NCBI GenBank assembly: GCA_964644965.1
Contig: CAZXYN010000004.1
Span: 6,190-70,189 of the forward strand
Length of the DNA: 64,000 nt
Direction: 5' to 3'
Origin: an uncultured Candidatus Saccharibacteria bacterium
GTDB taxonomy: Bacteria; Patescibacteriota; Saccharimonadia; Saccharimonadales; JACDBH01
The translations under genes were made by a program, and so were the position numbers. The notes beneath the pieces are model-generated. The model was not told where the DNA came from, did not search any database, and was given only the letters and a program-made list of their open reading frames with translations. The first letter of the stretch is position 1; the number at the start of each line of letters is the position of its first letter. This document shows positions 3,956-51,573 of this stretch, piece by piece.

Positions 3956-4246
3956 CTAGTAGCCTTTTGTGTAGCCTTTACCAGACTTGCTTATTCCCAT
4001 GTGCGCACAGCCGCCAGCTATACCACAATCTCCACAAATTGCAGGTGGGGTGGTAGATTCTTTTGGCTCCTCTGCGTAGTTAACGGCTGGAGTAGCGTCA
4101 GTAGGTTCATCGTGTTGTATTTCTGAATGAAAAAAATCAGGCTGTTCAGTATCCTTGCCTGAATAGGCAGGCTGATTACCGTGACCAGGACTATAGTTTG
4201 GAACTATGTCGCCTTCTGGTGTTTCTAAGAAGTTTGGATTTGTCAT
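3956..4246 (-). CDS. Hypothetical acidic protein with a C-terminal Cys cluster (96 aa)
   Basis: The ORF is preceded by a near-consensus promoter. The C-terminus reads ICGDCGIAGGCAH. Confidence 0.5.
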   Translation of the reverse strand: MTNPNFLETPEGDIVPNYSPGHGNQPAYSGKDTEQPDFFHSEIQHDEPTDATPAVNYAEEPKESTTPPAICGDCGIAGGCAHMGISKSGKGYTKGY

Positions 4247-4252
4247 AACTCC

Positions 4253-4281
4253 ATTATATCACACTTATGCTAATTTGTCCA
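4253..4281 (-). promoter_or_regulatory. Sigma70-type promoter TGGACA-17-TATAAT, only 6 nt from the ATG (leaderless mRNA predicted)
   Basis: The minus strand reads TGGACAaattagcataagtgtgaTATAATggagttATG. Confidence 0.6.
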
Positions 4282-4310
4282 CATCTTGAGACAGCCACCC
4301 CTGTCATAAC

Positions 4311-4376
4311 AAAAACTTGCAAAAACCACCCCTGTAAAAGGCCAGGCCTTTTACAGATAGGTTGTTTGCAATTTTT
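4311..4376. repeat. REP-like extended palindrome (core CTGTAAAAGGCCAGGCCTTTTACAG at 4332-4356)
   Basis: The same core recurs at 49513, 50195 and 51524. The flanks AAAAACTTGCAAAAACC and GGTTGTTTGCAATTTTT are also inverted. It lies just downstream of the 969-aa gene. Confidence 0.8.
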
Positions 4377-15493: not shown

Positions 15494-15500
15494 AAGCCGT

Positions 15501-15720
15501 GTTCTTTCAATAAAGAACCAAATTACTACTTCTCCTTGTTGAGAAGTAGCCAAGAAACACTGGGCCAACTTCTGACTTGATGTATCTGTTAGTGCAAACC
15601 AGGCTCGCTGCGGAACTCACCAAAAACAATCCACTGGATTATTTTTGGCTCAAACAGTCCTCGCGCCCAAGGGCACCTCGTTTGCACAACATCTACTCAG
15701 GTCAAAAGCCGATGCCCAGG
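15501..15720 (+). ncRNA. Candidate structured RNA, paralogue of the 39.1-kb RNA (the strand call is tentative)
   Basis: The 5' module GTTCTTTcaatAAAGAAC-caaatta-CTACTTCTCcttgttGAGAAGTAG is about 80% identical to 39208-39275. It is followed by an imperfect hairpin of about 160 nt (arms 15560-15599 and 15680-15720). Confidence 0.4.
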
Positions 15721-15745
15721 ATCAAATAATGTAAGCGAAATTAAT

Positions 15746-15864
15746 AAAAAAGCTCCCCATAGGGAGCAAAGCCCCGTAGTAGACTTTCGAGTTTGCCTGC
15801 CCTATTGGGCAGGCATAGTCCGCCATAAGCGGAGTCTCGAAAGCTCACTACAGGGCAAAGCAAT
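15746..15864 (-). ncRNA. Orphan sRNA of about 120 nt, bounded by a consensus promoter and an intrinsic terminator
   Basis: A 21-bp closing helix (GCCCUGUAGUGAGCUUUCGAG / CUCGAAAGUCUACUACGGGGC) encloses two hairpins. The RNA ends in GCUCCCuaugGGGAGC followed by U6. Confidence 0.55.
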
Positions 15865-15870
15865 AAGTCA

Positions 15871-15899
15871 ATTATACTACTTATGCTTAAAAATGTCAA
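15871..15899 (-). promoter_or_regulatory. Consensus promoter TTGACA-17-TATAAT
   Basis: The minus strand reads TTGACAtttttaagcataagtagTATAAT. No ORF lies downstream. Confidence 0.7.
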
Positions 15900-15991
15900 T
15901 TCAGTTTTGTAGGTCGGATTTATTCCGAGCTCAAAACTTCCTTATTCAGGAAGGAGCAGCCCGACAAAATGTATTCCATTTTGCCGGCGCG

Positions 15992-16019
15992 ATGAGGAAA
16001 CCTATCTCGGTTTCCTCAT
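15992..16019 (-). terminator. Hairpin after the 675-aa gene
   Basis: The sequence ATGAGGAAACCgagataGGTTTCCTCAT forms an 11-bp stem 3 nt after the stop. It has no U-tract. Confidence 0.4.
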
Positions 16020-16022
16020 TAC

Positions 16023-29103: not shown

Positions 29104-29270
29104 AGTCCATCCCAGCCTTACGAGTTGCCGTGATGGTTTTTGCTCCTGCTCGGGAGACCCCGGTAGTAGAACAAGTTCACTACGGGGCTTGCTTTAATGC
29201 TGTGTCGGGCTATAACCGTAGCGGCACTGCGGAGGAATTTCACCTCACTTCCAGCTTGTTTGTTAATACT
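29104..29270 (-). promoter_or_regulatory. Cobalamin-riboswitch-like aptamer
   Basis: The minus strand contains AAGCUGGAAGUGAGGUGAAAUUCCUCCGCAGUGCCGCUACGGU, which matches the conserved core GGGAAxxxGGUGxxAAxUCCxxxGCxGxCCCGCxACUGU. It also contains CCCGAGCAGGAGC, which resembles the B12 box CCCGAxGCCAGGAGAC. This is a by-eye match only. Confidence 0.5.
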
Positions 29271-31062: not shown

Positions 31063-34000
31063 TTATTCATCCTTGTGGATGCCGTATGGCGAGTGGTCTT
31101 TTGATGATTTGTGACGCTTTTTGAGCACGAACAATGTTACGGTAGAGCCGATTAACAATAGTAGGCTTGCCCACCAGATTGGTCGATTGATGACTGTTTT
31201 TACAATTCTAGTTACTGCCGAACCAAGCCCACGATTGTCACTGGCTGCTTCGGCCTGAGGTTTCGACTCCTCTTTTGTCTCTTCTATTGGAGCCGTTATT
31301 GGAAGTGGATCCGGTTCTACCGTGCCATCGCCCTCAGGCAGCGGTGGTGCTGGCGTGCTACGAACACCAAACAGCCCAAACACTGAGAAGCCCGATGTTT
31401 GGCAGCTGACAATCCTGGCTGTGGCATTCACTTGGCAACCTGTTAATTGCTGCCAAGCTGTGCCGTCGTGTCTAAATATTGCTAGGCTTGATACGTCAAA
31501 ACCAGCAGCATCGTCTGAGCTGTAGCTGATCGATACTGTCAGAACACCGTTGAAACTAGTAGTCAAGACATTACCTGCCTTTATGGCTTTAAGGTCATAA
31601 ATATGGCTACCGACAAGTACTCTGCCAGTTGGCTGGCCAATGCCGCTGAGGGCTGGAGCCGGAGACAGCTGCTTGACCTGAATATCGGTCGCTTCGTCTA
31701 CCGCGCCAGCTGGGACTTGGACCTGCAAGGCGGCCGAGCCGCTATTCAGACTTGCCTGACCGCCACCCACACCAACCGATGCGTGAGCCTGGTTCATGAT
31801 AGCCGCGTTACCAGAACATGCCGTTGTCGTGAAGCTGCCAATGCCGCTGATGGCTTCGTTGTCAAGCTGGTCAATGCTGGCGACTCTAAACTGGAATGTG
31901 CTACACGGTGGCAAATTCTGTAGCAGAACGCTGTGTGTTGTTACCCGTGGGCTGGTGTTACTCTCTACCGTTGTCTCGCTGAACGAACTCCCTACCCCGT
32001 ACAGAACCCGTGACGAAGCTATCTCATTGGTCTTCCAGGTGATAACTGCACCGGCGCTACCTGGTGTTGCCGAGATCATAGTTATAACTGGCGGCGTATT
32101 GTCGATGGATACCGATGAGCTGACCCAGGCGGATTTGTTACCAAGATTATCAACCGCCCGAACCCGGAAGTACCAGGTGCCAAAATCTAGCTCAGCTACA
32201 TGCGTAAATGTTGGATCGTTGGTTGTCCCAGCAGTAACACCACTGGAGAAATTGCTAACACTAGACCACTGGATTTCGTAAGCTGGGTCGTCCAGCCCTA
32301 CTCCTGCGTCATTACTAGCCGTCCATGTCCAGGTTGGGGTTGAGTCCTTGGTTGGAGTGTTAGTCTCTAGATCGGCTGGCAAGCTTGGCGCAGTGGCGTC
32401 AATCTCGACCGTTCCGTAGGCAGACCAGGCCGATGCATTGCCAGCATCATCTTCTGCATTTACCCGGAAGTACCAGGTGCCGTCAGACAGGTTGCTCGAA
32501 TGAGTAAAGCTTTCGCTGTCATGAGTCTGAGTAGTGACACCAGCTATAAAGTTGCTGTCCTGCGACCAGGCAATGTTGTACGGCTCAGGTCCAAAACCAA
32601 AACCAGAGTCAGAACTCGGTGTCCAAGTCCAGGTTGGGGTTCTGTCGCTGGTTGGAGTCGGAGTAGTACTTGGTGTACCTGGCGCTGATGGCGCATCGGT
32701 GTCGACGTAGACAGCACCGTTGCCAGACCAGCCAGACTGGTTGCCAACATCGTCAACCGCCCGAACCCGGAAGTACCAGTTACCCTCTGGTAGACTGCTG
32801 CCGTGGGTGAAGTCAGCACTGTTAGAGGTGTTGCTGCTAATTCCAGATATGAAATCTCCGTCCTGCGACCACTGCACTTCGTAAGCTGGATTATCTAGTC
32901 CGACGCCGCTGTCGGTGCTAGCCGTCCAAGTCCAGGTTGGGGTGTCGTCGTTGGTTGATGCACTTCCAGTGCTTGGTGTGCCCGGTACTGTCGGAGCGCC
33001 AGAATCTACGATTACTTCGCCGCTGGCACTCCAGGCAGAGGTGTTGTCTATATCATCGCTAGCTCGGACTCGGAAATACCAAGTGCCGTCAGACAGGTTA
33101 GAAACGTGAGTAAAATTATTGCTGTTGGTCGTGCCAGAACTTATGCCGCTAGCGAAGCTGCTGCTCTGTGACCATTGGACACTGTAGGTAGGGTCGCCTA
33201 ATCCAACGCCGCTGTCGGTGCTAGCCGTCCAAGTCCAGGTAGGAGTCTGGTCGTTGGTTGGCGAGGTTGTGCTAGGCAGACCTGGCACATCCGGAGCAGT
33301 GGCATCAATCACCACATTGACTGTCGTAGAAAAGGCAGATTGATTCGCAACCACATCCTCAGCGCGGATTCTGACATACCAAGTGCCGTCGTCAAGATTA
33401 TCATTGTGAGTAAAGCTGTTGGTGTTTGCAGAGTCAGAGAATACTCCCGACTCAAATGCATCATCTTCTGACCACTCGATGTAGTAGGCAGGATTAGCCA
33501 GGCCTGAGCCGCTGTCAGTACTTGCCGTCCATGTCCAGGTTGGGGATTGATCACTAGTTGGACTAGGTGTAGTTACTGATCCAGGTACACTTGGAGCTGT
33601 TGTGTCTATTAGCACACTGCCGATTGAGGAGTAGAGCGAAAATGTGTTTGTCTCATCCTCTGCCCTAAGTCGGAAGTACCAGATGCCGTCGGCTAGACTA
33701 CCTGGCTGAGTGAAGGCATTTGTAGCGCTGGTGTCGGTCGAAACACCACTCAGGAAGCTGTTGTCCTGCGACCATTCGACATGATACGGCGGGCTAGCGA
33801 GCCCTGCATCTGCTGTGCTGGCTGTCCAGTTCCAGGTCGGCGTAGTGTCAGTTGTCGGTGTAGTGGTTGTAGGCGAGCCTGGAATTGTTGGGCCGGCGGT
33901 AGATACGAGTACACTGCCTGTAGCTGCATAGGCAGAGGTGTTGTTTAGACCGTCTACTGCCCTAACCCGGAAGTACCAGGTGCCGTCGGCCAGGTCGTCA

Positions 34001-37000
34001 GTGTGCGTAAAACCATTGGTGTTTACGGTGTCAGAGAATACTCCGCTGCCAAAGGTGTTGTCTAGTGACCACTGCAAGTCATAGGCAGGATTACGCAAAC
34101 CCACGCCGTTATCGGTACTAGCAACCCATGCCCAGGTTGGGGTGTTGTCGTTGGTTGGAGTCGGCGTACTCGGTGTGCCTGGCACACTCGGCGCAGTGTC
34201 GTCTACTTCTACACTGGCAATTGACGAGTTAGCTGATTCGTTATTCACTTGGTCAATCGCCCTAACTCGAATATACCAAGTGCCGTCGGCCAGACTTGCA
34301 CCGTGGGTGTAGCTATTAGTTGTACTGGTTGATGATTGGACACCAGACGATAGGTCGCTGACCGTCGACCACTCGACAATATATGAGTTTGTCGCTAGCC
34401 CCGAACCGGCTCCGTCAGAGCTGGCAGTCCAAGTCCAGGTTGGGGTATCGTCGTTAGTTGGTGTGGTGGTCGATGGTGTACCCGGAGTCGTTGGTGCAGT
34501 GGCATCGACAAACACACTGCCAGTACCACTGTAGGCAGAAATATTACTGACATCATCCACTGCCCGAACTCGGAAATACCAGGTGCCGTCTGCCAACGGA
34601 TCTGGATGGGTAAAGCTATTATTAGTAATCGTGTCGGTGGTAACGCCAGACAAGAAATCAATATCCTCAGACCACTCGATCATATATGGATCATCAGCAA
34701 GTCCAACACCAGCGTCAGTACTGGCTGTCCAGGTCCAGGTTGGCGTATTGTCCGCCGTTGGTGTGGTGGTCGATGGTGTACCCGGAGTCGTTGGTGGATT
34801 GATATCTACAATCTTGCTGCCTTGATTTGACCAGGCTGATTGATTGCCGACTGCATCCACCGCCGCAATTCGAACATACCAGGTTCCATCAATCAGCTCA
34901 TCGCTATGGGTGAAGCTATTGGTAGTGCTGGTATCTGTTGAAACGCCACTTACGAAAGTATTGTCCTCTGACCACTCAACTACGTAAGCATTGGTTGCTA
35001 GCCCAACTCCACTGTCTGTACTGGCTGTCCAGGTCCAGGTTGGCGTGTCGTCGTTCACGGGGTCAGAAGTGGTTGGGTCGCCTGGAACAGTTGGCGCCGT
35101 GGTGTCGATATTTACCTCGCCATTAGCAGAGTAGCTAGAAGTGTTGTCGGCAGCATCGGTAGCTCGAACTCGGAAATACCATACATCCTCTGCAAGCGGC
35201 ACCGAGTGCGTAAAGCTATTGGTACTAGTCGTGTCGGTGCCATCAACTGAGCTAAATGTCTCATCAGTTGACCACTCAATTTCATAAGGGGTTGCCGCTA
35301 ATCCAACACCAGTGTCATCTGGAACTGGCCAGGTCCAGGTTGGGGTAGTGTCATTGGTAGGCGTAGTGGTAGATGGGGCATCAGGAGTATCTGGGGCGAC
35401 CGTATCAATTGTGACAGAGCCAGCCGTAGAGTAGGCCGACTGATTCGATAGCGTATCGCGAGCATTTATACGAATATACCAGGTGCCGTCTGCCAGTGGT
35501 CCAGGATGTGTAAATGTAGTCGAAGCTACAGAGGTACTTCCACCAATACTAGAGAAGTTAGAGGTATTCGACCATTGGACAAAATACGGGGTTGGCGTCA
35601 GCCCGACACCAGTATCAATGCTTGGATCCCAGTTCCAGGTAGGCGTGTTGTCGTTGGTTGGGTTGGTAGAATACGGCTGACCTGGCAGTGACGGCGGCGT
35701 GGTGTCAATCAACACACTGCCGTTTGCCGACCAAGCCGATAGGTTTCCCAGCGCATCGGCTGCCCGTACCCTAAAGTACCACGTATTGTCCGCCAAAGTT
35801 GTTGGATGCGGATAGGTGTTAGTTGCCGAAGTATCAGACGAAACACCGCTAGAGAAGCTTGAATCAAGCGACCACTGCACAGTGTATGGCACCGCAGCCA
35901 GGCCAGCACCGCTGTCTGTTGGTGGTGACCAGCTCCAGGTCGGCTGATTAAAGTTAGTAGGCGATGACGTGTATGGTGCCAGAGGTGTTGTCGGACCGGT
36001 GGTGTCAATCAGATGGACTGCACTAACCTGCCAGTTTGAGTTATTTCCTAACGTATCAGCAGCCCGGACACGGAAGTACCAGTTGCCGTCGTTCAGGTTA
36101 CTGCCATGTGTGAAGCTTGTATTATCGGTGGTTGCCGAGCTGACACCACTGAGAAAAGTGTTGTCTATTGACCACTGCAACGTATAAGTTGGGGAGCCGA
36201 GGCCTGCGCCGACATCACTACTCGCACTCCAGGTCCAGGTTGGTCTTTTCTCTGTCTGCGAACTTGCCGTCGATGGCACGCCAGGATCTGTTGGCGGTGT
36301 TACGTCCAGCTGGAATGCAACCGCGCCACCGTTAGCGGTTGCGTAACTAGACTCGCGTGGCGTGCTATAGTTATCAATTCCCTTTACCCGCCAATAGTAG
36401 CTGGCCGTAGCCAGCGACATGCCGTCTGACCCTGCTATGTAAGTATCATCAGAAACGTTCTGACCAACCGTGTAAGTACGAGTCCCTTGATCACCAATAT
36501 CAGAAATATAATCTACTTCTGGTGATGAAAAATCACTATTATCATCAATCTGTATCTGGAAACGCATATCATCAGCGTTGTTTTGATCAAACAATTCAAA
36601 CGACAGCGTTGGCGTGCTGTCACCGACAAAACCGCCGCCGACAAAGCTAGCCGTACCGAGGTTGGTTGGTGTCTCTGGAGGGACATTTATTGTCCAGTTG
36701 ATGTTGTTACCAGAGTCAGTGATGTTGGTGTCTGTAATATCGACCGGGCTGGCATTGACGTTGTTACTGTCCATGACATCCAGGTAGCTAATGGTCTCTG
36801 TCCCAGATGGATTAATGTTCCAGTGCTGTCCATCAACACTTGAGCGGAGTGACAATAGCTCTCCAACCGCACCGTTAAGTGTCAGTTGATTTGTAACCAC
36901 GGTTGTTGAGCCTGCGGCGAATTCAAGTGTGGCTGCACTAGCAACCTGCTTTGTTAGGTTATAAAAAGTTGTCGAACTCTTAATCCGCTGATCACCGCCA

Positions 37001-38925
37001 TTTAACGTGACAGTGCCACTTCTACCCTGGAAAACACCACCGTTGTTGTCGAGATTGCCGGCAATATTAAGTGCATAGTTACTAGAAGTTACATCAAATA
37101 TACCGCTGTTAATAACAAGGTCACCGTTTATGTTGGCTGCAGCACTCAGGCTGATTCGGTTCAGCGTGAGTGCCGGCATTTCTCCAGATACAAGCTTGCC
37201 GATTTCCATACCAGTAAGCACGCGGCTATAGATGCGGACATCGTCAATTAGCCCCTCAAAATCATCGCTGCTGTCCGTACCAATTCGGTTAATAAGTCCA
37301 GCACCATTTAGCAGAGTCTCTGACCCACCCTGACTTACCCCGTTGATGTACAGAGCTAGCGCATGAGTCGCACCAATGTCGGTCTGAGTAATACAAAAAT
37401 GCTTCCAACCGCCGTAGACCGAGGTAACTGTCCATGATGCCATCTGGCCGCCAGCCTGTTCATAAGCTCTAACCTCTGTACCACCATAAACCGCCAGCGC
37501 GTACTGGCCAGGCGTATCGGCGCCCAAAATTACGCCACTTCCCGAGGTCATATTTGCCCAGGCACACCAAGTCGCATTGTCCGGGATTGTCTGATCGTCA
37601 AATGACAGATAGTCTCCGCTACCATCAAATTCTAGACTGTTATCGTTGGTAAATGTCGAGCTTGGCACATCTGTCGATGCCACTACATCACCGTTGTAAT
37701 CAGCGTTTTTGTCGTAGCCAGATACATCGGCCGCGACCGATCCTGATGGCTCATCAAACGGCCAGTGAGCAAAAGTACTGTCATTTTGTATCAGATTGAA
37801 ATAATTATTGCCGGTTTTCAGTCCAGTCGTATCGCCCACCGCCGTCACGAGAACTGTTCCCGAATCGGTGTCGTTAGTAAAACCGCTGATTGTCTGCGAG
37901 TTTCTAAGCTGCAATGTACCATCGTTGTTGAAAGCTCCGCCATCATTCATCGCCAAGTTATAGCCAACCAGATTTAGCCGAGCACCGCTGTCGATAGTCA
38001 GCTCACCGAGCGCAATATTGGCAGAGGCGACTGGCTGATTTGGTGAGTCAGCAATCTCGACATGTGAATAATTATCAGGAACCGCACCGGTGTTCCAGTT
38101 GGCAGCAGTCTCGAAGTCTGACGAAGTTACACCAGTCCAGGTGCTAGTCGGATGACCGCCGTTGGCCATGTCATCCACTTCTGTATTTAGCAGCTCACGA
38201 TTGTAGATCCTGACTTCGTCCATATTGCCAGCAAACGATCGGTTGAGTGCCGAGTTGTTACCCATGATTATGTTGTAAGTATCGTCAGATACCCGCGTGC
38301 CGACACCGGATGTGTCGGTCGTGAAGGCCACCTGCTCGACACCATCGATGAATAGCTTCACACCGCTGGAATCACTGGTGCCATCCCAGGTAACAGCCAC
38401 ATGCGCCCAAGCATCAGTTGGCAAAGTTGCAGTGGTGACTTTATTCAGTGCAGAGCTAGTAAAATTAGCGTAGAAATGCAATGCGCCGTTGTCGACGTAG
38501 AACGACCAGCCGTTAGTAGAGTTGGTCTTGTCGATAATACGGCCCTGAGCACTTTCGCCAGCGTAAGATGTCGGGTAAATCCAAGCACTGGCGCTGAATG
38601 TCGCCATGTCGTCAATCGGGTCAGCACTAGTAACGTTGATGGCGTTGTTGGTGTTGCCAAATGTCAGACTCTTGCCATTGCCATAATTGGTTGGTGGCGT
38701 GTTAACAGAGTACTGTGGCAGCACTGTACCAGACGGTGAACCCGTTCGGCCATCACCAGACCAGTCGACCTTTGAATCGGCAGCAAAGTTTTCTTCGAAC
38801 TTCCAGTAGCCTACTAGACTGTCTGTACTTGGTGTGGCACCTGAGCGCAATATTCCAAACAACAGCGGAGCTGCCAGTAAAATACTGGTGGAAAGTAATG
38901 CTAAAACTACACGTTTCTGTCTCAA
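31063..38925 (-). CDS. Giant (2620 aa) tail-anchored surface protein: signal peptide, two LamG/ConA-like lectin domains, a beta-helix-like region, 14 tandem Ig/FN3-like domains of about 100 aa, an FN3-like domain and a C-terminal TM segment
   Basis: LamG hallmarks are DEVRIYNRELL and DDVRIYSRVL. The repeat signature is PTWTW..S.D.GVGL...Y.V.WS......G....T....FTH...L.DGTWYFRVRA.D..GN.S.WS. The C-terminus is IWWASLLLLIGSTVTLFVLKKRHK. The start codon is TTG, preceded by a GGAGG RBS. Confidence 0.85.
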   Translation of the reverse strand: MRQKRVVLALLSTSILLAAPLLFGILRSGATPSTDSLVGYWKFEENFAADSKVDWSGDGRTGSPSGTVLPQYSVNTPPTNYGNGKSLTFGNTNNAINVTSADPIDDMATFSASAWIYPTSYAGESAQGRIIDKTNSTNGWSFYVDNGALHFYANFTSSALNKVTTATLPTDAWAHVAVTWDGTSDSSGVKLFIDGVEQVAFTTDTSGVGTRVSDDTYNIIMGNNSALNRSFAGNMDEVRIYNRELLNTEVDDMANGGHPTSTWTGVTSSDFETAANWNTGAVPDNYSHVEIADSPNQPVASANIALGELTIDSGARLNLVGYNLAMNDGGAFNNDGTLQLRNSQTISGFTNDTDSGTVLVTAVGDTTGLKTGNNYFNLIQNDSTFAHWPFDEPSGSVAADVSGYDKNADYNGDVVASTDVPSSTFTNDNSLEFDGSGDYLSFDDQTIPDNATWCAWANMTSGSGVILGADTPGQYALAVYGGTEVRAYEQAGGQMASWTVTSVYGGWKHFCITQTDIGATHALALYINGVSQGGSETLLNGAGLINRIGTDSSDDFEGLIDDVRIYSRVLTGMEIGKLVSGEMPALTLNRISLSAAANINGDLVINSGIFDVTSSNYALNIAGNLDNNGGVFQGRSGTVTLNGGDQRIKSSTTFYNLTKQVASAATLEFAAGSTTVVTNQLTLNGAVGELLSLRSSVDGQHWNINPSGTETISYLDVMDSNNVNASPVDITDTNITDSGNNINWTINVPPETPTNLGTASFVGGGFVGDSTPTLSFELFDQNNADDMRFQIQIDDNSDFSSPEVDYISDIGDQGTRTYTVGQNVSDDTYIAGSDGMSLATASYYWRVKGIDNYSTPRESSYATANGGAVAFQLDVTPPTDPGVPSTASSQTEKRPTWTWSASSDVGAGLGSPTYTLQWSIDNTFLSGVSSATTDNTSFTHGSNLNDGNWYFRVRAADTLGNNSNWQVSAVHLIDTTGPTTPLAPYTSSPTNFNQPTWSWSPPTDSGAGLAAVPYTVQWSLDSSFSSGVSSDTSATNTYPHPTTLADNTWYFRVRAADALGNLSAWSANGSVLIDTTPPSLPGQPYSTNPTNDNTPTWNWDPSIDTGVGLTPTPYFVQWSNTSNFSSIGGSTSVASTTFTHPGPLADGTWYIRINARDTLSNQSAYSTAGSVTIDTVAPDTPDAPSTTTPTNDTTPTWTWPVPDDTGVGLAATPYEIEWSTDETFSSVDGTDTTSTNSFTHSVPLAEDVWYFRVRATDAADNTSSYSANGEVNIDTTAPTVPGDPTTSDPVNDDTPTWTWTASTDSGVGLATNAYVVEWSEDNTFVSGVSTDTSTTNSFTHSDELIDGTWYVRIAAVDAVGNQSAWSNQGSKIVDINPPTTPGTPSTTTPTADNTPTWTWTASTDAGVGLADDPYMIEWSEDIDFLSGVTTDTITNNSFTHPDPLADGTWYFRVRAVDDVSNISAYSGTGSVFVDATAPTTPGTPSTTTPTNDDTPTWTWTASSDGAGSGLATNSYIVEWSTVSDLSSGVQSSTSTTNSYTHGASLADGTWYIRVRAIDQVNNESANSSIASVEVDDTAPSVPGTPSTPTPTNDNTPTWAWVASTDNGVGLRNPAYDLQWSLDNTFGSGVFSDTVNTNGFTHTDDLADGTWYFRVRAVDGLNNTSAYAATGSVLVSTAGPTIPGSPTTTTPTTDTTPTWNWTASTADAGLASPPYHVEWSQDNSFLSGVSTDTSATNAFTQPGSLADGIWYFRLRAEDETNTFSLYSSIGSVLIDTTAPSVPGSVTTPSPTSDQSPTWTWTASTDSGSGLANPAYYIEWSEDDAFESGVFSDSANTNSFTHNDNLDDGTWYVRIRAEDVVANQSAFSTTVNVVIDATAPDVPGLPSTTSPTNDQTPTWTWTASTDSGVGLGDPTYSVQWSQSSSFASGISSGTTNSNNFTHVSNLSDGTWYFRVRASDDIDNTSAWSASGEVIVDSGAPTVPGTPSTGSASTNDDTPTWTWTASTDSGVGLDNPAYEVQWSQDGDFISGISSNTSNSADFTHGSSLPEGNWYFRVRAVDDVGNQSGWSGNGAVYVDTDAPSAPGTPSTTPTPTSDRTPTWTWTPSSDSGFGFGPEPYNIAWSQDSNFIAGVTTQTHDSESFTHSSNLSDGTWYFRVNAEDDAGNASAWSAYGTVEIDATAPSLPADLETNTPTKDSTPTWTWTASNDAGVGLDDPAYEIQWSSVSNFSSGVTAGTTNDPTFTHVAELDFGTWYFRVRAVDNLGNKSAWVSSSVSIDNTPPVITMISATPGSAGAVITWKTNEIASSRVLYGVGSSFSETTVESNTSPRVTTHSVLLQNLPPCSTFQFRVASIDQLDNEAISGIGSFTTTACSGNAAIMNQAHASVGVGGGQASLNSGSAALQVQVPAGAVDEATDIQVKQLSPAPALSGIGQPTGRVLVGSHIYDLKAIKAGNVLTTSFNGVLTVSISYSSDDAAGFDVSSLAIFRHDGTAWQQLTGCQVNATARIVSCQTSGFSVFGLFGVRSTPAPPLPEGDGTVEPDPLPITAPIEETKEESKPQAEAASDNRGLGSAVTRIVKTVINRPIWWASLLLLIGSTVTLFVLKKRHKSSKDHSPYGIHKDE
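32100..36310 (-). repeat. Tandem array of 14 diverged coding repeats of roughly 300 bp
   Basis: I counted 14 WY(F/V/I)R(V/I/L) cores in the translation, between DVTPPTDPG (about 36310) and NTPPVITM (about 32100). The DNA phrases ccaggtccaggttgg and cggaagtaccaggtgccgtc recur with this period. Confidence 0.8.
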
Positions 38926-39064
38926 GTGTCCTCCAAGTCAAACGCTTATGACTATTGTACTCCTTTTGGGTGCCTATTCATATCTGTTAACTAGGGCTTT
39001 TTTGCTTGGTTTTGAGCGGTTTTACACAGCCTGATTTTTGTCATAAAGCTAACAGGGGTGAATA

Positions 39065-39093
39065 TTGACTACCCTTGCCAAGTGTGATATAAT
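39065..39093 (+). promoter_or_regulatory. Consensus promoter TTGACT-17-TATAAT, divergent from the giant gene
   Basis: The sequence reads TTGACTacccttgccaagtgtgaTATAAT. No ORF lies downstream. Confidence 0.65.
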
Positions 39094-39099
39094 AAGAGG

Positions 39100-39512
39100 A
39101 TAGGCCAAATACAAAAACCCACACCTTCCTAGTTAAAATAGGTTTCTTCCAATGAAGAACCAAATTACTTCTTGCAACCATCCGCTGCATAGCGGAAGCA
39201 AGTTATTATTCTTTAAATAAAGAATCAAATTACTACTTTTCTTGCCGGAAGAAAAGTAGCCAAAAGACCTCGGGCCAAAATGTTTTCTTAACTTGGTTTG
39301 TTGTTAATAAACACAATACGCTGGGGCGGACTCCCTACGGTCGGCCCACAAAGTTTAATACTAGAGTTTGTGGACAGCGCCTTGCTCTCTATTAGTGTTT
39401 TTAACTAACAACCAAATTAGGAAACATTTTGAAGCCCACTTAAGACCATGGACACCCGCCTAGGCGGGTGGATTGTTTAAGTCGCCACGGCCTTGGCCGT
39501 GGCTTCTATTTT
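39100..39512 (+). ncRNA. Candidate structured RNA of about 410 nt (unknown class)
   Basis: It begins at the predicted TSS after the promoter. It contains two tandem copies of the TTCTTY..RAAGAA-YCAAATTA-hairpin module (39143-39205 and 39208-39275). These are followed by a hairpin of about 33 bp and 160 nt (39277-39314 / 39395-39430). It ends in two GC-rich perfect hairpins, CACCCGCCtaGGCGGGTG and GCCACGGCCttGGCCGTGGC, and then UUCUAUUUU. Confidence 0.5.
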
Positions 39513-39920
39513 GGTTCCGGCTTTTCAAAATCCGATTTGTCGGTCTGGCAGGGTGAAGTCGCCTTTTGCGAGGACTATTTGCCACTGATTACGGGCTGCC
39601 AGTGGCAGTCCAGTTATAACAATATCGCCCCGATTAGGGCGTAGCCATGGCTCTCGGGTCTGGGCATCAAATTGGCTCCTGATTGGACTTTGTCAACACT
39701 ACAACTAATAGCCGAGGACTGTTTGACGGAGTTGCTTCCCAAATAGCAGGCAACTCCTAGTTCCGCAGGCTGTTGTCTTTCTTGACAGAAGTATAGTCAA
39801 GAAGTGCTGCGGCCCGGTGGTTTTGCGCCACTTTTGACACCAAAAGCTGGCGGCCTTTGGTTCTTTGGCCGGAGAAAGAACATAAAATATATGGCTCTAT
39901 ACCGAAAGAAGCCGAATCTA

Positions 39921-40640
39921 CTATTCGCCGACAATAATCAAAATATCAGCATCAGGGAACGTCTCGCCTGCCGGCAAACGCGAGATTTCTGCATTCAAAT
40001 CTTTTGCAATTTCCTGGACTTTTTCGTCATAACGATCGGTTACGTTCACAATTGTGACACCCTTGTAATCAGACCTTGTAGATTTGTCGCGGCTAACAAC
40101 ATCGATATCTTTGATGCGCTTCAGCAAGTCCTCGACAGATTCAACCGGCTCAGTGCCTGAACTACCTTGGCGCACAAAAACTTTGGCGTCTGGTGGCGTA
40201 TAACTGCCAGAATGCACAATTCGCTGCTCACTTGGCCGATACAGCACAGCCTTGCCTGCTTTGTAATACAGCAGTACTTTGTCGCCGTTTTTGGCTTGTT
40301 CGAGGAACGGCTGCTCGACTTTTTCTTTGTCTATTACGCTCAACACAGCAGGGTTTCCATCGCCACTAATACTAAGCTCTTTGTTGACCTGAACCACGAT
40401 TTTGTCATTGGTGAGCTCTGCCGAACCTGAGCGAATTAACAGAGATAATCCTCCGATTATTATCATAATTACTACCAGCCCAATCAGCGCTCGCAACTTG
40501 TGTGATTTTGCCCACGAAGAAGCCAGCTGGAGAGTTGCCTTTGTATACACCCAAATACTCGGCTTGATTTCTGACGCCTGTGGTTCAACCTTTTTTTCAG
40601 CTGGTTTCGTGGTCTTCTTAGTTGCCTTTTTTGTAGCCAT
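39921..40640 (-). CDS. Membrane-anchored LytR_C-domain-like protein
   Basis: It has a Lys-rich N-terminus and one TM segment. The C-terminal stretch VFVRQGSSGTEPVE...VTIVNVTDRYDEKVQEIAKDL...ADILIIVG resembles LytR_C. Confidence 0.55.
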   Translation of the reverse strand: MATKKATKKTTKPAEKKVEPQASEIKPSIWVYTKATLQLASSWAKSHKLRALIGLVVIMIIIGGLSLLIRSGSAELTNDKIVVQVNKELSISGDGNPAVLSVIDKEKVEQPFLEQAKNGDKVLLYYKAGKAVLYRPSEQRIVHSGSYTPPDAKVFVRQGSSGTEPVESVEDLLKRIKDIDVVSRDKSTRSDYKGVTIVNVTDRYDEKVQEIAKDLNAEISRLPAGETFPDADILIIVGE

Positions 40641-49504: not shown

Positions 49505-50245
49505 AAATTTTCAAAGGCCAGGCCTTTTACAGATGAGAAAATTACAAGTTTGCCAATTCGTGCTTGAGTTCGCCCAACATATTTCTGTTTTCTTCGTAGT
49601 CAGATACAAACTCCAGGTAAGCCTCTCGGCTGGCGTGTTGCTGTATCACCCTTTTGGTTTGAAGCCATTCTGGTTCGCTCGCATTGCGTATATGACTAAT
49701 GCTTGAGTATGGAAATCTTTTCCAGCTACGAGGATTAAGGTGTATATACCTTGAAACGTGCAATAAATAGGCATCCCTACTGATAATCGCTGCTTTGAAT
49801 CTATTCTCAAACAAAGGACCCGTACGCTCGTATTTGTGGTTGAAGTACGTCGAATAAGCCACCATGACGCTTTTCATTAACTGAGACAAAGTTCCCTGCG
49901 TTGCTTGATAAAACAACAGATGAAAATGATTATCCATCAAGCAATAAGTCAGAAGCTCCAGATCACCTCTGTAATGTGGATAGGTATAGTTTTGTTTATT
50001 GGTTACGGGTTTGATCGACAGGTGTCTGGACAGAAGGTATAGGAAATAATCCTTATCTGCAGCTTCGCGGAAGATAAGTCCCTTTGCTGCACCCCTGGCA
50101 TAGACATGATAATAGCTGTCCCCGGTGTCAAAACGTACTGTATTCCTCGACGGCATAGGCAAATTATAGAGAAATCGACAAAACTTGTAAATCACCTATC
50201 TGTAAAAGGCCAGGCCTTTTACAGATAGGGTTTTTGCAAGTTTTT
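49505..50245 (-). mobile_element. RAYT unit: REP-associated tyrosine transposase gene bracketed by REP palindromes
   Basis: The REP core AAAGGCCAGGCCTTT lies at 49513-49527, immediately 3' of the gene. The full 35-bp palindrome CCTATCTGTAAAAGGCCAGGCCTTTTACAGATAGG lies at 50195-50229, 5' of the gene. Confidence 0.8.
49542..50156 (-). CDS. REP-associated tyrosine transposase (RAYT; IS200/Y1-transposase-like)
   Basis: The likely start is the ATG at 50156 (MPSRNTVRF...). The HUH motif is LMDNHFHLLF, followed by TGPLFENRFKAAIISRDAYLLHVSRYIHLNP, which carries the catalytic Tyr. Confidence 0.85.
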   Translation of the reverse strand: MPSRNTVRFDTGDSYYHVYARGAAKGLIFREAADKDYFLYLLSRHLSIKPVTNKQNYTYPHYRGDLELLTYCLMDNHFHLLFYQATQGTLSQLMKSVMVAYSTYFNHKYERTGPLFENRFKAAIISRDAYLLHVSRYIHLNPRSWKRFPYSSISHIRNASEPEWLQTKRVIQQHASREAYLEFVSDYEENRNMLGELKHELANL

Positions 50246-51506: not shown

Positions 51507-51573
51507 GTAAAAGTGTAAAACCTCTATCTGTAAAAGGCCTGGCCTTTTACAGATAGGACTTTCGCAAGTTTTT
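51507..51573. repeat. REP copy (core CTATCTGTAAAAGGCCTGGCCTTTTACAGATAG at 51524-51556)
   Basis: This is a 33-bp perfect palindrome with the family flank CGCAAGTTTTT. It lies downstream of paralogue B. Confidence 0.8.

Follow-up and report, generated by a model that had tools for sequence, protein, structure and literature searches.

The window analysed here is a stretch of 64,000 nucleotides of DNA from an uncultured Candidatus Saccharibacteria bacterium, an organism that is also represented in Logan runs SRR16797979-SRR16798009. Two minus-strand genes, a giant ORF (31063-38925) and an ORF of 239 aa (39921-40640), are separated in this window by a gap of 995 nt (38926-39920), i.e. longer than the 830 bp of non-coding DNA given in a preliminary description of the locus. 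This description had proposed a structured RNA of unknown class bounded by a promoter and a terminator; its features do sit where it had placed them, above chance expectation, and the observation stands once the lengths of the gap and of the main stem are corrected. The element, hereafter E1, comprises the following parts (bit scores are those of covariance model R1, which describes hp1-linker-hp2):

39065-39093, plus strand: sigma-70-type promoter TTGACT-17-TATAAT with an extended -10 (TG), 11 of 12 positions matched
39144-39202, plus strand: upstream partial module, with hp1a (TTCTTC-CAAT-GAAGAA), linker CCAAATTA and the compound hairpin CTTGC..TCCGCTG-CA-TAGCGGA..GCAAG (23.8 bits)
39144-39159, plus strand: hp1a
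39171-39202, plus strand: compound hairpin, after linker CCAAATTA
39208-39271, plus strand: full 5' module, with hp1b, CAAATTA, hp2b and the A-rich linker CCAAAAGACCTC (86.5 bits)
39208-39225, plus strand: hp1b, followed by linker CAAATTA
39233-39259, plus strand: hp2b, a perfect hairpin of 11 bp
39272-39437, plus strand: long imperfect hairpin (P1, about 40 bp, ~165 nt) around a type-A three-way-junction core
39453-39470 and 39484-39503, plus strand: GC-rich hairpins 1 and 2, each with a U-rich tail, predicted plus-strand terminators (whole unit 39453-39514)

As noted earlier, the promoter has no ORF behind it: the plus strand carries no gene from 39514 until 59414. Only seven promoter-like sites match at least 11 of 12 positions in the whole 64-kb window, and six of the seven are intergenic and correctly oriented, one of these six lying upstream of an AdoCbl-II riboswitch found by the Rfam scan of the window. 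Such sites being rare and, in six cases out of seven, intergenic and aimed at a gene or an RNA, the E1 promoter can be regarded as credible for this organism. Judging from the promoter's position, transcription of E1 would start near 39100. Downstream, the tandem two-hairpin modules described previously are real, but the second hairpin of the first module is unlike that of the second; the same TCCGCTGnAnAGCGGA module as in E1's upstream partial copy is also present in another Saccharibacteria contig (L031). The large imperfect hairpin and its branched core, a three-way junction with the conserved strings ACACAAUACGC, GGACUCCCUNCGGUCGGCC and CCUUGCUCUCUAUU, were also retrieved, the outer stem (about 37-43 bp) being longer than the ~33 bp first proposed. 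At the 3' end, the two reported GC-rich hairpins and U tract were found at 39453-39514, where two plus-strand sites combine a GC-rich stem-loop with a U-rich tract, and TTCTATTTTGG stands directly 3' of the second hairpin; the region holds five terminator-like sites versus 1.5 expected. Over a stretch of 416 nt, the fold of E1 has a z-score of -8.3 on the plus strand versus -6.0 on the minus strand. A small ORF of 22 aa starting at 39152 was discarded, as it is not conserved in other copies.

Structured sequence extends past 39512, owing to another element (E3) on the minus strand, and at least three copies of the modular element (E1, E2 and E3) exist in the 64-kb window:

15499-15727, plus strand: E2 (R1, 92.7 bits), starting 8 nt past the stop codon of an LssY_C gene
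15501-15518, plus strand: hp1 of E2
15526-15550, plus strand: hp2 of E2
15560-15719, plus strand: long hairpin of E2, with a type-B core
39883-39651, minus strand: E3 (R1, 30.2 bits, E 6e-5), tail-to-tail with E1
39881-39860, minus strand: hp1 of E3
39854-39825, minus strand: hp2 of E3
39817-39660, minus strand: long hairpin of E3
39769-39712, minus strand: type-B core of E3, CUGCGGAACU-hairpin-GUCAAACAGUCCUCG
39568-39641, minus strand: distal part of E3, a minus-strand terminator-like site (repeat D7)
39641-39626, minus strand: distal GC hairpin of E3, CGCCCTAATCGGGGCG and AUAUUGUUAU
39611-39568, minus strand: distal mini type-B-like helix of E3, GGACU-hairpin-AAAUAGUCCUCG

The order of parts in E2 is that of E1 (hp1, CAAATTA, hp2, A-rich linker, long hairpin with a branched core); the module copy that had been noticed at 15501 is genuine, as are the compensatory changes between copies. 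The head of E3 was found as a minus-strand R1 match at 39884-39805; the element begins 37 nt past the stop codon of the 239-aa gene, heading towards E1, and a syntenic type-B copy occupies the same place in L078. The entire 995-nt gap consequently consists of two elements placed tail-to-tail and about 180 nt of older sequence beside the giant gene. The initial proposal of a promoter-to-terminator structured RNA thus holds in that E1 is non-coding, bounded by a promoter and terminators, and highly structured, but E1 is not unique, since it belongs to a modular family with repeated occurrences.

Eight further copies were identified, all in other Saccharibacteria contigs, and homologues were found only there. 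A genome pattern scan gave 46 matches, of which only three were real, all in Saccharibacteria metagenome-assembled genomes (MAGs; L031, L037 and L038). Searching related genomes with a covariance model, as had been suggested, did recover homologues in Saccharibacteria: R1 retrieved E2 and the L031, L037 and L038 copies, and added E3 as a third copy in the window. More copies were sought in contigs encoding homologues of the two neighbouring proteins (those of the LssY_C protein likewise come from Saccharibacteria), which provided E7 (L055), E8 (L057), E9 (L066/L072), E10 (L062/L063) and E11 (L078), as well as a deletion remnant of the element (L053/L054).

A full element consists of one or more hp1 hairpins, hp2, an A-rich linker and a long hairpin, often followed by one or two GC hairpins. 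The hp1 hairpin is conserved in sequence (GTTCTTT-N4-AAAGAAC, with AT before and CAAA(T) after), whereas hp2 is a pyrimidine/purine hairpin conserved in structure and not in sequence. The long hairpin (150-170 nt) is imperfect, with a three-way-junction core; its stem ends, CTGGGCC...GATGCCCAG, are common to E1-E4 and E8, and a motif inside the stem, comprising a C.A opposition and a U.G pair, is conserved as well. The second GC hairpin of E1 (GCCACGGCC..GGCCGTGGC) is itself a conserved module of the family, the same hairpin being present after the elements in L066 and L055, and the GC hairpin GCCACGGC...GCCGTGGC lies 3' of E1, E7 and E9. Cores fall into at least three interchangeable types:

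Type A (E1, E4, E8 and E9): ACACAAUACGC ... GGACUCCCUNCGGUCGGCC - variable hairpin - CGCACCUUGCUCUCUAUUGUGU
Type B (E2, E3, E5, E6, E10 and E11): CUGCGGAACU - variable hairpin - UCAAACAGUCCUCG
Type C (E7): a third version

The helix GGA(A)CU/AGUCC is common to types A and B, and the conserved stem ends occur on elements with unlike cores.

Base pairing is strongly maintained among these copies. In nine copies of the 5' module, 97% of cells are paired versus 84% in shuffles, and 8 of the 16 pairs are changed on both sides, a value reached by none of 500 shuffles. Similarly, RNAalifold predicted 72 pairs for the four full type-A copies, 20 of which show double changes; pairing reaches 95% versus 41-49% when partners are slid, these slid controls giving one to five double-changed pairs. 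The arms of the long stem are only 45-76% identical among copies (37-76% for the 5' arms), yet each copy forms 33-49 bp. Conversely, the type-A core is 90-95% conserved between genomes in which the stem arms are 65-76% identical, and its unpaired nucleotides are invariant. The covariation that the preliminary description had made a test of its proposal is therefore strong in the 5' module (8/16 pairs) as well as in the type-A element (20/72 pairs), and unusually clear for so few sequences; hairpin formation in single-stranded form is under selection. Covariation alone is however no proof of an RNA gene, and is compatible with a mobile repeat, because the spacers of REPINs also stay hairpins through common compensatory changes (PMC3116915); the present family would illustrate this point if its members are mobile.

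No described RNA family was matched by the copies scanned. Rfam cmscan of the whole window at gathering thresholds assigned no family to the element on either strand, and only sub-threshold noise was obtained for 38900-39950 at E <= 10 on both strands and for six homologue-bearing loci at E <= 5. The earlier failure to match known RNA classes is thus borne out at gathering and permissive thresholds, and the element family is absent from Rfam 15 and previously undescribed. ARAGORN detected no tRNA or tmRNA, blastn against phages and plasmids gave no match, and full-text literature searches for small RNAs, structured RNAs or repeats of Saccharibacteria or CPR brought up nothing relevant. Scanning viral contigs for the hp1 pattern and for type-A and type-B core motifs gave either no match or chance matches in coding regions, and a metagenome scan gave one match, again by chance and coding. 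Several known element types were also considered and rejected. A retron would require a reverse transcriptase, and none was found by Pfam among window ORFs of at least 150 aa or among neighbours at other loci, the copies lying at the 3' ends of unrelated genes. Integron attC sites were discarded because of missing core sites and the lack of an adjacent partner protein, the latter also applying to IS200/IS605 omega-RNA and IS110 bridge RNA. A riboswitch or cis-regulatory leader does not fit the gene-free plus strand downstream of E1 nor the position of other copies at gene 3' ends. The combination of terminal inverted repeats and target-site duplication that defines MITEs was not found for E1 and E3.

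The distribution of the elements differs markedly between close relatives. In L075, L077 and L079-82, the same two genes as around E1 and E3 are 150-183 nt apart, versus 995 nt here, with no element between them. Conservation at such empty sites covers the extended -10, TG included (TGATATAAT or TGGTATAAT), along with ~150 nt around it; L075 and L079, both lacking the element, retain the extended -10 of the E1 promoter. The extended -10 is therefore older than the element, and the insertion of E1 and E3 took place downstream of a promoter that already existed, on the near side of the convergent gene's stop codon. No direct repeat was found at the borders of E1 and E3 when filled and empty sites were compared, nor was a target-site duplication or transposase-end signature found for the elements.

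At the LssY_C site, relatives hold a type-A, type-B or type-C element, a remnant, or nothing. L055 and L057 encode an identical LssY_C protein within identical flanks, yet carry a type-C and a type-A cassette, respectively; the two contigs share one sequence up to and including hp1-CAAATCC, diverge in the hp2 and long hairpin, and become identical once more at the downstream flank. In a single MAG, two near-identical copies (E5 and E6) occupy unrelated loci, following genes for a histidine kinase and for a zincin, and their small hp1-type hairpins differ in order and number. The family thus behaves as a mosaic of few modules in variable number and order: hp1-type hairpins occur one to four times in different orders, cores A, B and C are interchangeable, and GC hairpins are optional. 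Genes adjoining the elements are functionally unrelated. Three copies are present in the 64-kb window and none in some 20-kb syntenic stretches, and copies per genome may be few. Such presence/absence polymorphism, cassette exchange, module shuffling and decay are typical of intergenic repeats that are mosaic or mobile.

Judging from context, every copy would receive transcription at its hp1 end. At five independent loci besides that of E1, it would come from a co-oriented gene ending 8-40 nt upstream, with no terminator between the stop codon and the copy; it enters E4 after the rpsI terminators, and E1 from the promoter. Only E1 has a promoter of its own, the other copies starting 8-40 nt past the stop codon of an unrelated gene. 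Terminators of the GC-hairpin type stand at the far end of E1, E3, E9 and E11. Counts of G.U versus A.C pairs, used as an indication of strand, conflict between type A and types B/C. In the long stems of types B and C, the strand opposed to neighbouring-gene transcription has an excess of G.U pairs (40 versus 16; 36 versus 15 with the duplicate copy left out, binomial p = 0.005) and also lower energies. The type-A long stem is neutral, with a single G.U pair per strand and -37.8 kcal/mol on both in E1, whereas at the helix ends of the type-A core G.U pairs are conserved on the hp1-first strand. At the E1/E3 locus, the plus strand is better or equal for both elements. This asymmetry fits either selection acting on DNA in its single-stranded form or transcription that reaches some copies from the opposite side. 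For the copies at the LssY_C locus, antisense transcription from a conserved 12/12 promoter at 15899 (minus strand) was considered and rejected, as a terminator-like hairpin intervenes in most syntenic loci; a separate short RNA is the more likely product of this promoter.

Other palindromes, together with a transposase gene, were found elsewhere in the window:

49542-50195, minus strand: Y1 transposase ORF (Pfam Y1_Tnp, E 7.5e-9)
15773-15854: 82-nt palindrome (three-way junction, GTAG/CTAC ends) between the two copies of a 7-bp direct repeat (GCAAAGC)

The best NCBIfam match of the transposase, below cut-off, is the REP-associated tyrosine transposase (RAYT), and the protein looks intact, with HUH (HFHLL) and YIHLNP motifs; a PDB sequence search with it returned nothing informative. 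This RAYT-like gene lies 10 kb from the element and is flanked by the REP palindrome ATCTGTAAAAGGCCTGGCCTTTTACAGAT, unrelated to any element module. The palindrome ATCTGTAAAAGGCC(T/A)GGCCTTTTACAGAT flanking the ORF also occurs at 4330-4358 and 51526-51554. As for the 82-nt palindrome, it is unrelated to the E1 family, has no counterpart at the same place in L055 and L057, and recurs in L058 with covarying stems. Given a Y1 gene with its REP palindromes and an inserted 82-nt palindrome, this lineage thus has active mobile hairpin elements.

The best-supported, though still tentative, interpretation is that E1 is a transcribed copy of an undescribed modular, mosaic or mobile-like intergenic repeat of a Saccharibacteria subclade, comparable to BIMEs, BOX elements or REPINs and likely acting in cis, rather than a unique RNA gene. 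Elements have been gained, lost, exchanged and reshuffled, presumably through recombination between conserved modules or through transposition. In this genome, E1 and E3 lie tail-to-tail, with the older promoter on one side and the convergent 239-aa gene, stop codon first, on the other. From the sequence, we infer that the promoter would transcribe E1 into a structured non-coding RNA of ~410 nt ending at the element's own GC-hairpin terminators. Where these transcription units converge, E1 and E3 together may form a zone of termination or insulation that works in both directions, a cis effect being the most probable; the element would also give the transcripts stable 3' structures, the long stems being potentially good barriers or RNase III substrates. 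Several observations stand against this interpretation: copies per genome may be few, neither a target-site duplication nor a transposase-end signature was found, the REP beside the RAYT-like gene is unrelated in sequence to the elements, and the G.U counts of types B and C run against the strand expected from context. In addition, the type-A core is better conserved than the arms, including its unpaired positions, whereas REPINs and MITEs show the reverse, their ends being conserved and their spacer free. This conservation therefore points to a sequence-specific function of the core. A rather unlikely alternative is that E1 and its relatives are genuine functional RNAs, working in trans or with a bound protein, with the three-way-junction core as active part. 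The modular 5' hairpins and the terminators would be accessory, the patchy distribution would stem from paralogy of sibling RNA genes and recombination between them, and the exposed type-A loop CUCCCU is a candidate anti-Shine-Dalgarno-like seed. Besides the core (90-95% conserved, with invariant unpaired nucleotides) and the strong covariation, the dedicated near-consensus promoter and terminators of E1, its better fold on the plus strand (z = -8.3 versus -6.0) and the G.U pairs conserved at helix ends on this strand all argue for such RNAs. However, the promoter exists in E1 only and its extended -10 predates the element, the other copies simply follow stop codons of unrelated genes at 8-40 nt, close relatives lack the elements or keep them in decayed form, one and the same site holds different core types in different genomes, and the G.U asymmetry of types B and C favours the opposite strand.

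Unlikely in our view is a purely DNA-level origin, in which REPIN- or MITE-like elements would move as single-stranded hairpins through the action of the Y1 or another transposase, RNA being incidental. The intact-looking HUH/Y1 transposase flanked by REP palindromes in the same window is consistent with it, as are hairpin-preserving compensatory changes together with conserved stem ends, known from REPINs (PMC3116915), a G.U/A.C asymmetry independent of transcription direction, and the empty sites, cassette swap and duplicate copies. Yet the REP beside the transposase is unrelated to the element ends, no target-site duplication or cleavage motif is common to all copies, a conserved core with invariant unpaired bases is unexpected in a REPIN spacer, copies are diverged rather than forming near-identical populations, and at every independent locus it is the hp1 end that meets incoming transcription, suggesting that the elements are linked to transcription. 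A very improbable reading takes the gap for a long 5' leader, or a regulatory region, that would be read on the minus strand and serve the giant surface-protein gene: the gap does lie directly upstream of this gene, and relatives do conserve the ~150 nt that immediately precede its start codon (38926 to about 39106), but conservation stops at about 39106, relatives with the same gene arrangement lack the elements, the same elements occur at loci without such a gene, and no minus-strand promoter is found upstream of the elements in the gap. Even more improbable is a 6S-like RNA, the architecture evoked in the preliminary description and suggested by a ~165-nt long imperfect hairpin behind a strong promoter. 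Indeed, no 6S match was obtained even at E <= 10 on either strand, the centre is a three-way junction of covarying helices rather than an open bubble, and several copies coexist in the window whereas the syntenic sites of close relatives have none.

Mosaic palindromic intergenic repeats are a known kind of sequence. The BIMEs of E. coli and the BOX elements of Streptococcus pneumoniae consist of hairpin modules in variable number and order, located between genes at gene ends and co-transcribed with their neighbours, with proposed effects on termination and mRNA stability. The present element is likewise modular, hairpin-forming and intergenic at gene ends; it differs from them in sequence, in its host phylum (CPR), in its much larger central hairpin with alternative conserved cores, in an apparently low copy number and in cassette exchange at a fixed site. 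Elements of the ERIC and Correia type are imperfect palindromes of 100-150 nt, with simple terminal inverted repeats and target duplications, whose transcription yields long RNA hairpins; they can bring or encounter promoters and alter the fate of neighbouring transcripts, e.g. through RNase III cleavage. For the present element, by contrast, no target duplication was found, and its interior is branched and conserved. Retron msr-msd RNAs also combine small 5' hairpins with a subsequent long, sequence-variable hairpin, but no reverse transcriptase adjoins any copy, and 6S RNA resembles E1 in being long, mostly double-stranded and behind a strong promoter. Close parallels also exist with REPINs and the REP-RAYT system (Bertels & Rainey 2011, PMC3116915), which are also extragenic, form a long hairpin from inverted conserved ends with interior pairing kept by compensatory changes, and are predicted to fold in single-stranded DNA or mRNA; the window likewise contains a RAYT-like gene and the REPs that flank it. 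The element does have such a hairpin, with conserved ends (CTGGGCC...GATGCCCAG in E1-E4 and E8) and compensatory changes, but its repeat is not the sequence that flanks the RAYT-like gene. Moreover, its copies are diverged, apart from the near-identical pair of one MAG, and apparently few, whereas REPINs form near-identical populations of tens to hundreds per genome, and its interior is a sequence-conserved three-way junction to which hp1, hp2 and GC hairpins are attached.

What is new here is the interchangeability of conserved three-way-junction cores, cassette exchange at a fixed site and the occurrence of such repeats in a CPR genome, where they lie beside a RAYT-like transposase. A 1-kb stretch made solely of structured non-coding modules was unexpected, since Saccharibacteria genomes are tightly packed into about 1 Mb. 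It is conceivable, though unlikely, that the elements represent a new CPR-specific class of large structured RNA, in which the exchangeable A/B/C core would be the functional unit (protein-binding, Shine-Dalgarno-mimicking or catalytic) and the hp1-CAAAT module the docking point for cassette exchange; this would amount to an RNA-gene cassette system, or to a new kind of mobile element using a single-stranded hairpin. If the cores are functional, a large RNA family would be added to a phylum with almost no characterised regulatory RNAs. If the elements are mobile, they would provide a new marker of genome dynamics and strain variation in these episymbionts, and would account for the fact that public assemblies repeatedly break within them.

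The long stems of E2 (window 15560-15719) and of the family copies E5, E7 and E11 in other Saccharibacteria contigs (L038, L055, L078), that is, the outer helices of their imperfect hairpins, carry far more A.C oppositions than G.U pairs on the strand that the neighbouring genes would transcribe, so that the complementary strand folds better, by 10-23 kcal/mol. At the 5' edge of hp1, the small 5' hairpin of each element, an AUG (GUG in E2) is conserved in most copies (e.g. window 15499-15513; 39883-39795, minus strand). This codon starts a tiny ORF, AUG UUC UUN plus zero to two codons with the stop inside the loop, giving the peptides MFFQ*, MFF*, MFL* and MFLW*, and the version in E3 has 29 codons. 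Because a Shine-Dalgarno sequence is absent, this ORF may be owing to chance.

Logan contigs of several sequencing runs (L049, L050-L052, L064-L070) stop within elements, 67-225 nt beyond the neighbouring gene, which fits repeats or strain-level cassette variation breaking the assemblies.

Further features of the window.
15735-15899, minus: structured candidate RNA of approximately 120 nt, behind the promoter at 15899-15871
15899-15871, minus: perfect consensus promoter (12/12)
15773-15854: palindromic three-way-junction element of 82 nt, ends tagged GTAG/CTAC
29192-29268, minus: AdoCbl-II riboswitch (Rfam, 39.1 bits)
29489-29461, minus: riboswitch promoter, 12/12 with extended -10
49542-50195, minus: HUH/Y1 transposase gene, IS200-like and RAYT-like
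4330-4358, 49513-49534, 50198-50226, 51526-51554: REP-like palindrome ATCTGTAAAAGGCC(T/A)GGCCTTTTACAGAT

Behind its promoter, the candidate RNA would form a three-way junction followed by a terminator, GCTCCCTATGGGGAGC-T6 (z = -8.6). The 12/12 promoter and the GCUCCC..GGGGC hairpin are kept at the syntenic site in five other Saccharibacteria contigs (L053, L055, L057, L062, L066), and the region is a candidate for a short RNA whose transcription would converge with that of LssY_C. The 82-nt palindromic element, bordered by a 7-bp direct repeat, GCAAAGC (15766-15772 and 15855-15861), is missing from the corresponding place in L055 and L057, and a second copy (L058, 19632-19712) differs in its inner hairpins and shows covariation in its stems. 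The 82-nt element looks like a small mobile element. Close by, a repeated structured motif, e.g. CCACTGATAAGCAGCCACTTTTCGGC..AAGGGTAATTTGTT, lies 3' of the CarboxypepD_reg gene (window 15900-16022), with one to three tandem copies in relatives (L053, 11100-11400; L055, 11900-12230; downstream regions of L062 and L066).

The REP-like palindrome stands on both sides of the HUH/Y1 transposase gene and at two further intergenic sites, an arrangement resembling a REP/RAYT system within a Saccharibacteria genome. In L038 a perfect 44-nt palindrome (4131-4174), which includes TGTGACGGTCGTCACA and is repeated close by (about 4270-4300), resembles either an operator or a repeat.

The AdoCbl-II riboswitch lies downstream of its promoter and precedes an ORF of 480 aa that matches no Pfam family. 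Approximately 150 nt 5' of the giant surface-protein gene are kept across relatives (window 38926-39106; L075, 4756-4910; L079, 3085-3268). This region carries GTACAATAGTCATAAGCG immediately ahead of the ribosome-binding site, together with an extended -10 box directed away from the giant gene, toward the 3' end of the gene lying upstream.
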